Positions 13,301 through 64,000 of a stretch of DNA of 64,000 bases are shown one piece after another. The stretch comes from a virus. The notes beneath the pieces are model-generated. The model was given only the letters and a program-made list of their open reading frames with translations, did no database searches and was not told the origin of the DNA. The stretch's first letter is position 1; every line of letters begins with the position of its first letter. Position numbers and translations under genes: made by a program. Where the stretch lies: the IMG/VR virus record IMGVR_UViG_3300017774_005745, positions 1 through 64,000 of that record. One strand, given 5' to 3'.

Positions 13301-13588
13301 GTTGATATCTTTGGCACATCCGACCTTTCCATCGATTACGACGCAAAGGGAGTTCCGACCATAACTGCAGGAAAGCCTGGATTCCATAGTTTAGCGGTAG
13401 ACCCAAAGGGAATCGACCTCGGAAACTTGACGGGCCTTCTCCAGGAGCCGGATCGTCTACTCCCTCGCATCAATAACACAGGAGACAAAGCCCCCATCCC
13501 TCCTGTATACGATGTTCGTAAGCAGAAACTCGACCAGGTCCGTCTCTACGTAAAAGCTTTGAGCAGTGGCCCTGGACTTAGGGGCTAA
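10391..13588 (+). CDS. putative baseplate hub protein
   Basis: 1065 aa. N-terminal LRLFLEGQEVPVISASVS...AAIQIVP is typical of hub proteins; also supported by gene order. Confidence 0.5.
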   Translation: MPEGIGKPLRLRLFLEGQEVPVISASVSIVPNSPATAAIQIVPLDQGMDFYPRTMVHLFYLDQTSMLPEELALAKERGIPETEERLKYHLLFAGETVGYAFGQSPDQRSLVLQCLDFSSYWEACHATAIEYGPNGNAFYNQSALYGSNTALFDDIVNHQGEVISKWLQQTPKTPGLQNISGLAGGVIVMLEAIGGVPTRFKGVNDFFTFAELRTRLLSQIVAEENDSSASRLFSGKIFDEWLRHGLQNMGQQVTFRDMLKLLCSYIYYDVVPNPASKYDATITGTETGTYATTELSQNVNVRAALASLTTLKNRIFGAADFEYTNKTPIIRFANQTSDELGQIVTKLNAVGSIARGISSFVGQAQVTLQLLAADLTNESPTVEQFKIALNNTNISIQKAIDVINSPNQEKVTFKTGTKSTSTSSRLRSQVLRPDCFFAPAPRCNVIFPEHFSQVSFDRMYLSEVTRSLTLAYDTLIGKDQMLSRGVLAPNLGLDIKKLEKQAGTSGYRILMPHERHTGIIPRTEWLANTASFDKKTSSDKDKVVGARLSWVNRAAMFHFFKYRFGPRKVAVAGKFNPSIVCGFPAVVILKPFTPKESSLREALSIQESDDINTTDRKVLDLVQTNGTTEKPLGAPYQLLGMVGSVSHNIDQRGGSTSVEMHHARKHLGSDDEFVGIFSENTGTRTRRIRVPITSDVALAQANASSKDSLLQALVGVTPQVAAVGGSKTVIQKSTNPKSYKKNSRRPTVPPQILTRNVPTSTEKTETTPASLVDPKGRITGVDREVAVPKGGGTKITVGSNALFGAKGKIVGIEVVDSGTVEILSGTYTGRQVFRSVIVHEDVQVTATESVPVEEIIRPTWFSPKYKNARIGEEIYRPFFGTTSVIDELAFTGLASEIVSTTDSPEGDVFDPKEKFQDIQKALSTKQDNISKLSIERAVNIISYFYGMVKAQGKDVDQFVRSFTFRPIATMVDIFGTSDLSIDYDAKGVPTITAGKPGFHSLAVDPKGIDLGNLTGLLQEPDRLLPRINNTGDKAPIPPVYDVRKQKLDQVRLYVKALSSGPGLRG

Positions 13589-13594
13589 CCTTTA

Positions 13595-13623
13595 TTGGCA
13601 CTTGTGTTGTTTTCTTCTAGTCT
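13595..13623 (+). promoter_or_regulatory. sigma70-like promoter (TTGGCA-17-TAGTCT)
   Basis: Intergenic, canonical spacing, preceded by TTTA. Confidence 0.4.
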
Positions 13624-13649
13624 CGTTGCACACCTCTGAGGACCCTACA

Positions 13650-13955
13650 ATGACACCATCCGAACTAAAGGCACTCCGTTCTGGCTTCAACGATGAACTT
13701 GAGAAGATTGCTGGCTTCTCGCGCAGCGGCACCCGGCCGTTCAAGGCAGCTACCCTGCTCGCCAAGAAGAAGCTCGTCAAGAAGTCAATGATGAAGAAGA
13801 TGGGCTCTGGTCCGGAGCAAGCCAAGAAGCTTCTTGGTGGAAAGAGGAAGGCATTGGCTCTTCTCGCAGCAGGGGCCATCGGTGGAGACCAATTGAAGAA
13901 GGCAAAGGACGACTGGACTCTCGGTCGCCAGGTTCGCCGTCAACAGGGGATGTAA
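13650..13955 (+). CDS. small basic protein with DELEKIA motif (putative internal virion protein)
   Basis: Start moved to ATG 13650 (SD GAGGA). GFNDELEKIAG; Lys-rich, with a LLAAGAIGG segment. Confidence 0.7.
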   Translation: MTPSELKALRSGFNDELEKIAGFSRSGTRPFKAATLLAKKKLVKKSMMKKMGSGPEQAKKLLGGKRKALALLAAGAIGGDQLKKAKDDWTLGRQVRRQQGM

Positions 13956-59791: not shown

Positions 59792-61630
59792 ATGCGTACA
59801 GCTGGCGTTATTTTCGACTTCTACGACGATGTTTCGGGTTCCCTCCTCAAGAAAGCGTGCCCAACTGCGGCAGACCTTCCTGAGATTGTGAAAGAAGCCC
59901 ATATCCTCAGCCCAGAGGAGCACGAGGTTCTTCGTGACGAGGCATACGCTCTCACGATGGTGAACAACGGAACGCCTCTTCGGAAGTTCGCCTGCGTTGA
60001 CGCCGGGAACACTGCCCTCTCTGTTCTCTACTTCTCCGACACGGCCGACCTTCTGCCTCACGCCGCAGTGAAGGTAGCTGCCGCAAACCTTGTCGAAGCG
60101 TGCGAAGACTTCGAGCTTCCAGTTCCAGGTTGGCTCAAGACCGCAGCGAAGACGGGAATGTCAAAGACCCGCAATCCATCAAAGCAACCTCAGCAGAGCG
60201 ATGATGTTGAGTGGAGCCAGAGAACGAATCTCAACAGCGTCCAAGGCGGAGCGGACTCAGGTCGAGTCATCCCCACCGCCAGCCAGATGAAGACGGCACA
60301 AGACCATGCTTTTAGCCATATGGCTCGTGTGAAGGGCGCAAAGAAGAAAGACGTCAACCTCGACAGTTTCCACAAGCTGAATCCAGAGGCCAAGCCAAAA
60401 GAGAAGAAGGCTGTGTCGGGGGAGTGGATTCGCGACTTGACGAGGAGTGGAGCTCAGGCTGCTCACGCAGCAGGGAATGCAAGCAAAGTATCTAACTTTG
60501 CGGCCCGCAACTCTATGGCTGGTATGAAGCCAGCAGGAAAGGCGCTGACGTTTGCTCAAAATCAGAAACATCAAGTAGCGGCGAACGCGGCTAACAGTGT
60601 CTCCTCCAAGATGGCCTCAGCCGAGACAACCGAGAAGTTGGCTCTGAGTCCTGGTATGGTTAATTCTCTTGCTCAGTCAGGAGCGCGTAAGAACCCTCTC
60701 AAGGGATTCCAGTTCATGAATCGAATGAATGCCAAGTCAAACGCTCTCTACGACACCGCAAAGAAACTCCCACAAGGGACAGGGGCCCGATCAAAAGTAC
60801 TAGATAGGGCATACAATGCTCGTGAAGGGGCTCTTGGCGCAGAGACCGGGTACAAGGCAAACAGACCTTCCGCTGGCATGAAGAGTGACGCTCGGATAAA
60901 CGCAGAGGTTAAGTACAACCCACAGGGCAAGTACGCGTCCGTCGTAGACGTCTCAGAAGCACAAGAGCAGGTGCTCGTGAAGAGAGCATCGGCTGAGCTC
61001 ACTGCACTTGGTGGGAAGTACCCTCTCGATTCCATGGCTGATGTTCAGAAGGCCGCCGAGTACTTCGAAACGAACTACAAAGAGATGGAGCCAGTCGAGG
61101 CTCATATCTTTGCTGTGAAGACTGCGGCACGTGCTGAAGAGATTGGTGTTCCGACCTCTCACACTCTTCAGAGATACGGTTCCATCGAGTACGCCATTGA
61201 CGTCGATGCACATATGGCCAATCGACTGGCCGTCACGCCACTTGAGTACAGAGAAGTGTACCAAGAGCTTCGCGAGAAGCGCGCCTCAATCGAGCCAGAG
61301 ACATTCGCAAACCTCCTCGCAGAGGCAGACGAAATCTCAGGGCTTCGTTGGGTGTGGGGTGGTGATGTCGCTGACCCCTACTACGCAACCTTCGGTAAGC
61401 AGGCAAATGCGTGGTCCTGGACCGGACGCACTGGAGATTTTACTACCGAAGAAGAGTTGAAGTGGCTTGCAAAGAACGGTAGACCTCTCGTCCACAAGCA
61501 CTTCTCAAGTGAGTTCACGGATTCGTTCATCAAGGACCCGATTACTATCTTTGAGTCCATGCCGGACGACTCGAAGGTCATCCTCTCTCGTCTTGCAAGC
61601 GGTCGCTTTGATGCGATGAATGCGAACTAA
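59792..61630 (+). CDS. putative head/internal virion protein with many K-x-A motifs
   Basis: 612 aa; SD AAGGAG; KVAA, KTAA, KTAQ, KKAV, KMAS, KLAL, KYAS, KRAS, KTAA, KQAN. Confidence 0.65.
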   Translation: MRTAGVIFDFYDDVSGSLLKKACPTAADLPEIVKEAHILSPEEHEVLRDEAYALTMVNNGTPLRKFACVDAGNTALSVLYFSDTADLLPHAAVKVAAANLVEACEDFELPVPGWLKTAAKTGMSKTRNPSKQPQQSDDVEWSQRTNLNSVQGGADSGRVIPTASQMKTAQDHAFSHMARVKGAKKKDVNLDSFHKLNPEAKPKEKKAVSGEWIRDLTRSGAQAAHAAGNASKVSNFAARNSMAGMKPAGKALTFAQNQKHQVAANAANSVSSKMASAETTEKLALSPGMVNSLAQSGARKNPLKGFQFMNRMNAKSNALYDTAKKLPQGTGARSKVLDRAYNAREGALGAETGYKANRPSAGMKSDARINAEVKYNPQGKYASVVDVSEAQEQVLVKRASAELTALGGKYPLDSMADVQKAAEYFETNYKEMEPVEAHIFAVKTAARAEEIGVPTSHTLQRYGSIEYAIDVDAHMANRLAVTPLEYREVYQELREKRASIEPETFANLLAEADEISGLRWVWGGDVADPYYATFGKQANAWSWTGRTGDFTTEEELKWLAKNGRPLVHKHFSSEFTDSFIKDPITIFESMPDDSKVILSRLASGRFDAMNAN

Positions 61631-61639
61631 GGAACGACA

Positions 61640-62170
61640 ATGACAACTAGAATCCACGTTGGTTCTTTCTTCGACGAGCTTGAGAAGATCTCCTCCGCAG
61701 GCCTGGAACTCGCAGGTCTTGGTGTTCTGGCCGCCCCGAGCGTTAAGACACTGATGGATCCTTCGGCAAAGAAGAAGGAGAAGAGCCACGCGAAGTTTGA
61801 AACTGCAGGACTCGGTCTTCTTGCAGCCCACCCTGCGTACGAGATTGGAAAGAAGCTGCTGACTAAGAAGGCAGCTACCGTCTCAAACCCAGCGATGATG
61901 CGTAATCACATGCTGGTCGATTCACAGAAAGCTGCCATCAAGGCACCTGCACAGGCCGCCCCAGCGTTGATGAAGAAAGACCCATCTCATTACTCAGACT
62001 TCACCCCTTCTGCATCTGTGGGACATCAGCCGGTCCAGAAGGCAGCTCCCGCCCCGATGAAGAGCACAAGGGCACTTCCTTCTGCTGGTCCTGTCATGAG
62101 CGCAGCACGCCCCGCAGCCAAGGCTACTGGCGTGATGGCTCGAATCGCTAACACGTTCCGGAAGGCGTAA
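61640..62170 (+). CDS. basic protein with DELEKIS motif and glycine-zipper segments
   Basis: SFFDELEKISS; GLELAGLGVLAA; AGLGLLAA; Ala/Pro/Lys-rich tail. Confidence 0.7.
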   Translation: MTTRIHVGSFFDELEKISSAGLELAGLGVLAAPSVKTLMDPSAKKKEKSHAKFETAGLGLLAAHPAYEIGKKLLTKKAATVSNPAMMRNHMLVDSQKAAIKAPAQAAPALMKKDPSHYSDFTPSASVGHQPVQKAAPAPMKSTRALPSAGPVMSAARPAAKATGVMARIANTFRKA

Positions 62171-63105
62171 TGAAGAGTCCAGAACTAGAACTGTACGAGC
62201 GTCTTCGGGGTGCTGAGGCTAAGAAGCCAACGGCACCTTCGGAGGGGTCTGCCATGGAGAAGGAACTCAGGAAAGAGAATCCAGACGTCTCGACTCCACT
62301 TACAGTTCGAAACATCTTCACTCACTTCGATACGCATCCAGTAGTCCTGGACCTGGCACTCCTCAAGGCGTTTGGGGTTGATTGGTTCTCTTGGGATTCT
62401 TCTACACTGTACCAAGAGATTCAGCGTGTGTTCTTGTCTCAAATCTCAGAACACGCACGTGCGAAGATTCAAGCAATCAAGACTCTCCACGTCTCAGATA
62501 AGCCGTGGACGAGTTGGCAGGTCTTCGAGAAGGTCATTCAAGCTCTGAATAGCAGCATCCCTCGCTGGGAGTTCATGCAGGCTCCCTCGCTGGACCAGCT
62601 CTTTGCAGGGATTGATATCATGACCTCTATTCGTCCGGAGATTTTCGACGACGAAGTGAAGGCGTATATCGCAGCCGCTGTGTTGAACGAGGATGTCTTC
62701 TTCGTTCCCCCGCCCCTGGATTTTGCTCAGGTAGAAGTAAGTCACCCGAGGTACGTGTGTCTAGATTGTGGGAGCGAGGACTCTGCTCTCTTTCATGACG
62801 GAATCTGCGACACATGCTCCCAACGCTTTGACCCAGAGAACGGCTTCTCTTTCCAACCAGACCCAGACCTCATCCGAGACGGCAAAGGAAAGAACGTCAA
62901 GCTGGTTCTTCAGTTCGACCCGGACCCTATTGAGACTCGTTGGAATGAAGTAAAGGATACTCCAACGAAAGATGTAGACCTCCAAGAGACCCAGGTAGAC
63001 GTTCAAGTCGCAAAGCTTCTGCTCTCTCGCGACTACATGAACATCCGACGCAGACAACTCTCAGAGCAGCTTGTTGCTCTCAAGTCTTGGCTAGGGACCG
63101 TATGA
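62170..63105 (+). CDS. hypothetical protein with internal Zn finger
   Basis: 311 aa; CLDC...CDTC; TAATG and ATGA coupling to neighbours. Confidence 0.75.
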   Translation: MKSPELELYERLRGAEAKKPTAPSEGSAMEKELRKENPDVSTPLTVRNIFTHFDTHPVVLDLALLKAFGVDWFSWDSSTLYQEIQRVFLSQISEHARAKIQAIKTLHVSDKPWTSWQVFEKVIQALNSSIPRWEFMQAPSLDQLFAGIDIMTSIRPEIFDDEVKAYIAAAVLNEDVFFVPPPLDFAQVEVSHPRYVCLDCGSEDSALFHDGICDTCSQRFDPENGFSFQPDPDLIRDGKGKNVKLVLQFDPDPIETRWNEVKDTPTKDVDLQETQVDVQVAKLLLSRDYMNIRRRQLSEQLVALKSWLGTV

Positions 63106-64000
63106 ACCTCATGACCGTTAGATCGCTCCTTGATGAGCTTGAGAAAATCGCCGTCTCTGAGGAGTGGATTCGACGCCATGCTAGGAGAGGATCCCTACTG
63201 AGACATTCACTCAGTCGCGATGAGCATGGCGCTAGACTCGAAGGAGATCCTTTTGGATCGTATTACAAGACTCTCAAAGGAAAAGAACGGCCCCCTTTTG
63301 CCGGTACGAAGAGTACGTTGAAGGATGACCCACGTACACGTAACAAGAGACAAGCTAAGATAGATGGTACGTGGGAAGGCTTTGATGACTACTCTAGAGG
63401 ACAGAGACTCAAAGAAGTAGGTGGAAAAGAATATAGTAAGCAGAAACCATCTAATAAATCACCACCTACTCAAACAAACTCATCACCGACATCTACTCAA
63501 AAACTTCCTTCTTTTGCTAAAAAACACTGGAAGAAGGGTGTTGCTGGTCTCGCTGCAACCGGCCTTGCTGCTGGTGCCTACGCTCTTCATAAGAAGAGAA
63601 AAAGTAATCGTGAGAAGACGGCAGAGTCCGAAGAGGGAGGTGCTGTGAACTACGTAAAGGGCATCGGAAAGAATCTCAAAGGGGCAGCTAAGGACCTAAC
63701 GCATCCAATCTCAAGGGCTCACCACGAGCTCAGGAGAATGGGACGAGACATCAACTCAGCGATTACTGGGAAGAAGGGTAATAGACAACTCACTCCCATG
63801 CAGAGAGCTGGTAAAATTGGGAACCACGGCCTAACTGCTGCATTTACCGTCCCGGCCGCCGCTGCCGCACTGAAGAAGGATCCCTCTGGACAAACATCCC
63901 GTGCAGAGCGAGTATCAAGATTCGTAGGCTCTACGATTGGAAACCTCGCCACCTCTCGAAGAGGTCTCTCGGGTTCGATTGCGGGAAGCATCGCCGGAGA
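63102..64000 (+). CDS. basic modular protein with DELEKIA motif (runs off the right edge; not in the ORF track)
   Basis: Own translation is open to the window end: MNLMTVRSLLDELEKIAVSEEWIRRH...KKGVAGLAATGLAAGAYALHKKRKSNREKTAE...GSTIGNLATSRRGLSGSIAGSIAG. Confidence 0.75.
   Translation, partial: MNLMTVRSLLDELEKIAVSEEWIRRHARRGSLLRHSLSRDEHGARLEGDPFGSYYKTLKGKERPPFAGTKSTLKDDPRTRNKRQAKIDGTWEGFDDYSRGQRLKEVGGKEYSKQKPSNKSPPTQTNSSPTSTQKLPSFAKKHWKKGVAGLAATGLAAGAYALHKKRKSNREKTAESEEGGAVNYVKGIGKNLKGAAKDLTHPISRAHHELRRMGRDINSAITGKKGNRQLTPMQRAGKIGNHGLTAAFTVPAAAAALKKDPSGQTSRAERVSRFVGSTIGNLATSRRGLSGSIAGSIAG

Follow-up and report, generated by a model that had tools for sequence, protein, structure and literature searches.

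Does a short tripeptide, Lys-x-Ala (K-x-A), mark the places where a phage head protein is cut, or does it merely recur in a lysine-rich stretch? The question is raised by an open reading frame (ORF) of 612 amino acids (aa) at 59792–61630 on the + strand of IMG/VR virus record IMGVR_UViG_3300017774_005745, of which positions 1 to 64,000 (the window) were analyzed; the window covers the opening 64 kb of a phage genome of 196,807 bp. An original prediction, made from the letters alone, had described this protein as polyprotein-like, built from exchangeable peptide cassettes with K-x-A as a functional boundary. Its observations are partly confirmed, every coordinate it gave being correct, and its interpretation is partly supported. 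We find two conserved domains joined by a variable linker, with K-x-A in fixed positions at the linker edges. On balance, sequence comparison favors the protein being a prohead-internal protein and a substrate of the phage's own gp21-like protease, with K-x-A specificity, and the tripeptides flanking the insert described below are probably head-protease cut sites.

The 612-aa protein is a member of a large uncharacterized phage family; metagenomes yielded at least 178 homologs and IMG/VR 48 loci, many lying on contigs of 165–210 kb. The protein itself gave nothing in Pfam (E-value 0.01 or better), PHROGs, or NCBIfam, and a tblastn search against 50,697 phage records returned zero matches. The N and C domains are fused in every homolog seen, split forms beyond the searched length range not having been sought. 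For structure we used an AlphaFold2 model of the compact homolog P0009 (398 aa, mean predicted local distance difference test score, pLDDT, of 76). In this model aa 1–118 are folded, the low-confidence aa 119–185 are among the most conserved parts of the family, and the C domain is helical. The resulting anatomy is as follows.

59792–61630, + strand: 612-aa ORF with N domain, variable linker, and C domain (ORF list, homologs)
59792–60145, + strand: folded N domain, aa 1–118 (pLDDT about 80 in the P0009 model; highly conserved)
60146–60298, + strand: segment aa 119–169, ending RVIPTAxQMKTA (predicted disordered, pLDDT <50; near-invariant in 60 homologs)
60290–60298, + strand: K167-T-A169, left boundary and putative protease site (K and A in 60/60 aligned homologs)
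60299–60412, + strand: family linker module A, aa 170–207 (..DVNLDSFHKLNPEAKPKEKKA), ending in KKA at 60404–60412 (recurs in homolog linkers)
60413–60937, + strand: lineage-specific 175-aa basic insert, aa 208–382, ending in KYA at 60929–60937 (missing in the closest homologs)
60413–60451, + strand: VSGEWIRDLTRSG, the insert start, common to the gene at 63102 (BLASTP; also in homologs P0003 and P0029)
60527–60535, + strand: KPA, aa 246–248 (aligned with a KPA of P0003; weak, single comparison)
60608–60643, + strand: KMA (60608–60616) and KLA (60635–60643), the inner "dividers" of the original prediction (present, without homolog or statistical backing as boundaries)
60938–61627, + strand: conserved helical C domain, aa 383–612 (conservation and model; starts x-x-V-D-V-S in nearly all homologs)

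At the left boundary, the N part ends in RVIPTAxQMKTA with a near-invariant QMKTA (MKTA is aa 166–169, 60287–60298, as originally placed), and sequence identity collapses at the residue directly after A169, where every homolog diverges. K-x-A is found at this position in at least 149 of 160 homologs, several of the exceptions being one-residue alignment slips. After KTA, linker length ranges from 2 to 256 aa across homologs; compact homologs have a linker of 2–7 aa and place KTA directly before the C domain's x-x-V-D. Apart from K-x-[A/S], which stands before the C domain at one fixed position, linker sequences cannot be aligned. Among the 117 homologs with linkers of at least 20 aa, K-x-A ends exactly 4 residues before the conserved Asp in 57; K fills P3 in 77, and P1 is occupied by A in 61 and by S in 19. 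Because its register with the C domain is exact, this second K-x-[A/S] was either brought by the insert or kept by selection.

In the 612-aa protein the right boundary is GKYA (aa 379–382, 60926–60937). Its closest homologs, 81–93% identical in both domains, are without residues 208–382, and their ..AKPKEKKA runs straight into SVVD. The protein therefore holds a 175-aa insert, exactly between KKA207 and KYA382. That homolog indels should fall at K-x-A had been set beforehand as a test, and they do so at the outer boundaries (KTA169, KKA207/KYA382); no homolog supports the inner KMA and KLA.

These boundary tripeptides belong to a pattern that extends across the head genes. K-x-A occurs 95 times in the head module vs. 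67.4 expected (p = 9e-4), and 179 times elsewhere vs. 210 expected, with Glu at P4 in 31% of the head-module sites. EKIA ranks fifth among the tetrapeptides of the proteome by frequency (10 vs. 0.85 expected), and EK[LT]A repeats occur in a 300-aa protein adjoining the protease. In ten relatives K-[IM]-A closely precedes the conserved beginning of the major capsid protein; in Salmonella phage Arash, whose counterpart is 29% identical to the major capsid protein here (92237–93361), KEA occupies that position. F-E-K-x-A is conserved near the protease N-terminus. One motif, K-x-A, is thus common to the capsid protein, the protease, and scaffold-like and internal proteins, and is enriched in head genes only. 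Across the whole 612-aa protein it occurs 17 times vs. 6.8 expected (p = 2e-4), the top enrichment among 244 ORFs.

The same tripeptide closes a short N-terminal leader. The opening [ASG]-F-x-D-E-L-x-K-I-[A/S] is shared by forty ORFs of this genome and its relatives, whose sequences have nothing in common beyond it; the K is invariant, and the last position is A or S in 39/40. Seven leader-bearing ORFs are in this genome, including those at 61640 and 63102. Five further FxDELxKIA ORFs lie at 13566–13955 in the window and at genome positions 89902–90219, 141648–141893, 156377–157153, and 157718–158626. Since several are outside the head module, the leader-tagged set is scattered around the genome. 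Our literature search found no paper on the leader sequence or on a K-x-A (Lys-x-Ala) motif.

A candidate for the enzyme is encoded at 87390–88970 (526 aa). It matches a head-maturation protease PHROG (E = 8.7e-6), with zero matches in Pfam, NCBIfam, or PDB sequences. T4 gp21 was the top hit of its low-confidence structural model in both Foldseek (probability 0.93, E = 0.03) and VIA (Z 5.7, root-mean-square deviation 3.7, 142/165 residues). It is because of the leaders, EKIA, the head-only enrichment, the capsid protein start, the protease N-terminus, and this gp21-like candidate that we prefer a protease to other explanations of the motif.

As we picture it, the protease would cut after Lys-x-Ala, with Lys at P3, Ala or Ser at P1, and often Glu at P4. 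The two positionally conserved sites, KTA169 and KYA382, would bracket a disordered linker tolerant of almost any insertion, which here would consist of the family module (..LDSFHKLNPEAKPKEKKA) and the 175-aa orphan basic insert starting VSGEWIR. The products of cutting, set free within the capsid, would be the N part, the C domain, and linker peptides of basic character. The mature ends would stay constant whatever the insert, leaving the slot free to evolve, and at times the slot would have short modules in common with the basic proteins that carry the FxDELxKIA leader and are encoded beside the portal gene. From the observed anatomy, conservation pattern, synteny, and motif statistics we infer the cleavage itself, the virion location, and the fate and role of the fragments.

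Within the linker, the family modules keep a fixed register to K-x-[A/S]. Module A recurs in 46 linkers, with K-x-[A/S] no more than 22 aa downstream in 34, and the closest homologs have it directly adjoining the C domain. GLLNVYVV starts directly after K-x-[A/S] in 11/11 cases, GGxxLTxD has K-x-[A/S] 0–6 aa upstream in 17/25, and K-x-[A/S] comes after LDSFHKLNP in 34/46 cases and after GDLEVNY in 21/23. The order of the modules varies between homologs.

A full HMMER scan of 1.84 billion protein representatives with the 175-aa insert found only the protein itself and one spurious match, making the insert an orphan and not a circulating cassette. P0121 (3763 aa) was rejected as a relative of the insert, as it is a coiled-coil repeat protein matched via summed weak repeats. 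The stretch between MKTA and GKYA is rich in A, K, S, N, and G, and aa 208–382 have a net charge of +16. The insert has a GC content of 0.535, and at third codon positions (GC3) of 0.54 vs. 0.59–0.62, which is not a clear base-composition signal of foreign origin.

The original prediction had the basic stretch divided by KKA, KMA, and KLA. The basic character and the role of KKA, which bounds the insert, stand; KMA and KLA have neither comparative nor statistical backing, and the stretch also contains KGA and KPA. The third unit proposed there (EKLALSPGMVNSLAQSG, with EKLALSPGM correctly placed at 60632) is the best internal self-match, yet 12.7% of shuffles reach it. A genome search with the suggested expression K-x-A-[VL]-S-x-x-[WM]-[IV] retrieved only its three source instances.

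The peptides KKAVSGEWIRDLTRSG (from 60404) and KIAVSEEWIRRHARRG (63144, in the next-but-one gene) form the best local match between both proteins, with 12/23 identities, a BLASTP E-value of 0.004 as a single comparison, and 1/200 shuffles (0.5%) reaching the score. On its own this AVSxEWIR match is modest, many pairs having been open to scanning, and the common part is only about 16–23 aa. The match recurs in relatives. In the DNA examined, VS-x-EWI is confined to two gene families, the 612-aa family (P0001, P0003, P0029) and the portal-proximal leader protein (this genome and relative L011), and it directly follows K-x-A in 5/5 occurrences. In P0003 and P0029 similarity to the insert covers its initial ~41 aa, beginning with VS-x-EWI and closing at the aligned KPA, beyond which the sequences differ.

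Comparable matches, independent of this one and with other sequences, link linkers to other genes in other lineages. From K-x-A onward, the P0087 linker resembles the beginning of the post-leader part of the L032 leader protein (E = 1.6e-6); the P0109 and P0093 linkers resemble the leader protein of L005 (E = 3.5e-5 and 4e-4, respectively), P0109 again from K-x-A. The L011 linker (PKEAGLPRGLKELA) matches a 942-aa protein at 75763 (PKEKKAGIPKGMQELA), and GGGEVLTDD, a module of many linkers, is found after K-M-S in a 355-aa head protein at 90229. Modules common to other genes are short only, about 10–50 aa. At the DNA level the two VSxEWIR sites have only GGAGTGGATTCG, 12 consecutive bases, in common, and they differ at synonymous positions; either an exchange took place long ago or the motif arose by convergence, and recent gene conversion between them was rejected on these grounds. 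Exchangeable cassettes thus find no support in an orphan insert and a short common part without sign of recent DNA exchange. Whole-unit modules as in viral polyproteins were not seen, the domains always being fused in the homologs seen, and "polyprotein-like" overstates a two-domain protein with a variable linker.

Several observations weigh against cleavage at these sites, and some of them suit other accounts. Conserved K-x-A also occurs within the folded domains (KFA65 in 59/59 and KTA443 in 60/60 homologs), several such copies lying in predicted helices or a strand where they are unlikely to be accessible, so the tripeptide alone is insufficient to mark a cut and can be structural. About one third of the long-linker homologs are without K at P3 of the right boundary. 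Both facts would fit a protein that stays whole, its linker a flexible spacer and its K-x-A an edge motif of conserved blocks, perhaps one to which another head protein docks. We consider such an uncut tether unlikely: the KTA169 region is predicted to be disordered, which suits a recognized linear motif; the second K-x-[A/S] keeps its exact C-domain register while P2 and the other linker sequence vary; and the same tripeptide closes N-terminal leaders and precedes the mature capsid protein start. Motif counts inside the linker are also unfavorable. K-x-A occurs 7 times in aa 166–383 vs. 4.7 expected (p = 0.17, not significant), and 104 times vs. 104.8 expected in a pool of 101 non-redundant linkers from which the boundary sites were removed. 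Composition and chance would explain these figures, a Lys/Ala-rich stretch yielding K-x-A and AVSxEWIR being a coincidence from scanning many proteins; the shuffles that reach the KLA unit, the cross-gene E-value that is valid for a single pair only, and an expression that retrieves nothing new agree with this. As a general account, chance is very unlikely. It is refuted for the two boundary sites, positionally conserved in >100 divergent homologs, and it is at odds with a 175-aa insert that lies precisely between KKA and KYA and with VS-x-EWI following K-x-A every time in two gene families. For the inner KGA, KMA, and KLA and for the third unit it is the best account. K-x-A as a functional boundary, which the original prediction had taken to be best evidenced here, is accordingly probable for sites that are conserved in position and that fit the genome's putative head-protease code, and finds no support in the linker interior, where the motif is not enriched.

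A further possibility is that inserts enter by illegitimate or short-homology recombination at the E-K-x-A codons of many head genes, with K-x-A ends as a by-product, whether or not the protein is cut. This is compatible with a protease substrate and not exclusive of it, and we regard it as quite unlikely to be the explanation. The place of the insert can be fixed only to within exactly one K-x-A unit, as with a target-site duplication, and the same short modules stand behind K-x-A in different genes; in T-even phages the conserved leader-coding sequence of internal-protein genes is reportedly a proposed driver of shuffling. P2 nevertheless differs at the flanks (KTA/KKA vs. KYA, KVA, KMA, KIA), and that only K and A are kept there points to selection at the protein level, while the scarcity of common bases and the synonymous differences around VSxEWIR also tell against a scar. 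The protease-substrate reading has weaknesses of its own besides those above. The gp21-like fold assignment rests on a model with a mean pLDDT of 54, and some cross-gene module matches are Gly/Ala-rich and possibly inflated by composition. A profile search of the Arash genome found no 612-aa family member, and the published Arash proteome is at the protein level only, so that cut sites are not covered (PMC10585845).

One extension of the protease-substrate reading would be that the linker is a genuine cargo slot, in which arbitrary, rapidly invented basic peptides are loaded into the capsid in frame between two protease sites, trade short modules with the portal-adjoining leader-tagged proteins, and act after release on packaged DNA or in the infected cell. 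We offer this tentatively and think it rather unlikely. New here are the two-site slot of the 612-aa family, the 2–256 aa length series, and the repeated sharing of post-K-x-A modules with portal-proximal leader proteins. The family is in effect a natural experiment, with sites in register and the sequence between them turning over completely among close relatives. Should K-x-A be the cut site, a large group of uncultured phages, with Arash as a distant cultured relative, would have a head-protease specificity found in no paper; mature virion proteins would be predictable from sequence in hundreds of metagenomic phages, and the slot would be a capsid-delivery site tolerant of foreign sequence, like the T4 capsid targeting sequence. 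Should the sites be uncut, the finding shrinks to a hypervariable linker in an uncharacterized head protein.

The closest parallel in known systems is T4, in which the internal proteins IPI–III and Alt carry a capsid targeting sequence and are processed by the prohead protease gp21 (Mullaney and Black 1996, as cited in PMC10052503; PDB 5jbl). The likeness lies in a short common N-terminal leader on otherwise unrelated, fast-evolving basic proteins, in a tripeptide-type motif common to capsid protein, putative protease, and internal proteins, and in a candidate protease gene in the head module, gp21 being the best structural match of its low-confidence model. In contrast to T4, the motif is K-x-A (small P1, Lys at P3) vs. 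L/I-x-E, the leader is FxDELxKIA vs. MKTYQEFIAE, and the putative sites flank an internal variable slot between conserved domains and are not only those of an N-terminal propeptide. I-x-E is itself in excess genome-wide (225 vs. 178.6 expected, seventh by z-score in the gapped-dipeptide table).

In the giant phages SPN3US and phiKZ the prohead protease (gp245/gp175) cuts after A-x-E, and there are multi-site propeptides such as that of gp53 (PMC10052503, PMC5694885). All identified SPN3US cuts remove N-terminal propeptides, save for self-cleavage of the protease (PMC10052503). Shared with the phage studied here are a motif in many head proteins, several copies in propeptide regions, processed internal head and ejection proteins (putative here), and virion RNA polymerase genes nearby. 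The specificity differs, the C domain would be the part retained here with a conserved N domain upstream, and there is no sequence homology to the 612-aa family. A conserved K-x-A/S, compared to L/I-x-E in T4 and A/S/G-x-E in phiKZ and SPN3US, suggests T4-like logic with a different specificity. Arash (PMC10585845; OQ632216), the nearest cultured relative, likewise has head proteins dotted with K-x-A, with KEA preceding the conserved part of the capsid protein at its beginning and KQA close to the N-terminus of the protease.

The final 123 bp of the contig repeat its first 123 bp, and the genome is therefore complete, circularly permuted or terminally redundant. The 612-aa ORF starts a rightward operon, divergent from a replication block with a helicase and a UDG-like gene. 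In the IMG/VR loci the family member is always 2–4 genes upstream of the portal gene, and the recurring order is family member, small leader protein, ~310-aa protein, leader protein, portal, of which shorter versions exist. The order here is the same: a 176-aa protein, a 311-aa protein, a 331-aa protein (63102–64085), and the portal (64085–66163, identified by PHROG portal matches), beyond which lie the large terminase, the head-maturation protease, and the major capsid protein. The three small proteins, listed below, had zero matches in Pfam, PHROGs, and NCBIfam.

61640–62170, + strand: 176-aa basic protein with N-terminal leader ..SFFDELEKIS at 61640–61693 (leader motif; syntenic leader proteins in relatives)
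62170–63105, + strand: 311-aa conserved protein, syntenic partner of the 612-aa family (~310-aa ORF at the same place in most relatives)
63102–64000, + strand: leader protein 2, 331 aa, reaching 64085 past the window (leader; portal adjoining at 64085)

The 331-aa protein has the leader MNLMTVRSLLDELEKIA at 63102–63152, followed by VSEEWIRRHARRG at 63153–63191, the start of the shared peptide being at 63144 as first reported. Its mature part is strongly basic (+36) with a low GC3 of 0.43 vs. ~0.59 in neighboring genes. The post-leader region is fast-evolving or acquired. Its GC content within the window (63153–64000) dips to 38% near 63392–63541, and the L011 ortholog is nevertheless similar over its entire length. 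The 311-aa protein (62170–63105) has a Cys cluster, CLDCGSED...CDTC, and its position between the family member and the portal is kept in most relatives.

Neither domain of the 612-aa family matched a solved structure. A Foldseek search of the PDB with the P0009 model was empty at E-values of 0.001 or better, and the best VIA result for that model (Z 6.2 on a 62-residue C-terminal piece) is within background. The BFVD search of the family model returned uncharacterized phage proteins only, and the ESM Atlas only unnamed viral clusters plus a weak DUF6582 lead (PF20223; TM 0.45 for aa 15–123 and 0.27–0.35 for aa 393–468, with no Pfam match).

The 612-aa protein is itself without a conserved N-terminal leader of the capsid-targeting type. 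The family consensus start is M-K-T-A-G, with T3, A4, and G5 at least 90% conserved, and M-R-T-A in the protein here (59792–59806); most family members thereby have K-x-A at residues 2–4. In the relatives L056 (G002:C1:113249-118207), L058, and L062, head-protease homology is in 2–4 pieces within one frame. These split frames are of 900–1679 aa vs. 526 aa here, and the in-frame inserts between the pieces, roughly 0.4–1.6 kb, are possibly inteins or homing elements. A repeat of ~33 aa, its core being DWLPxFPDFxR, is present in ~15 copies in a 1236-aa ORF that lies beyond the window (genome 168303–172013); owing to it, FPDF is the commonest tetrapeptide of the proteome (17 vs. 0.3 expected).

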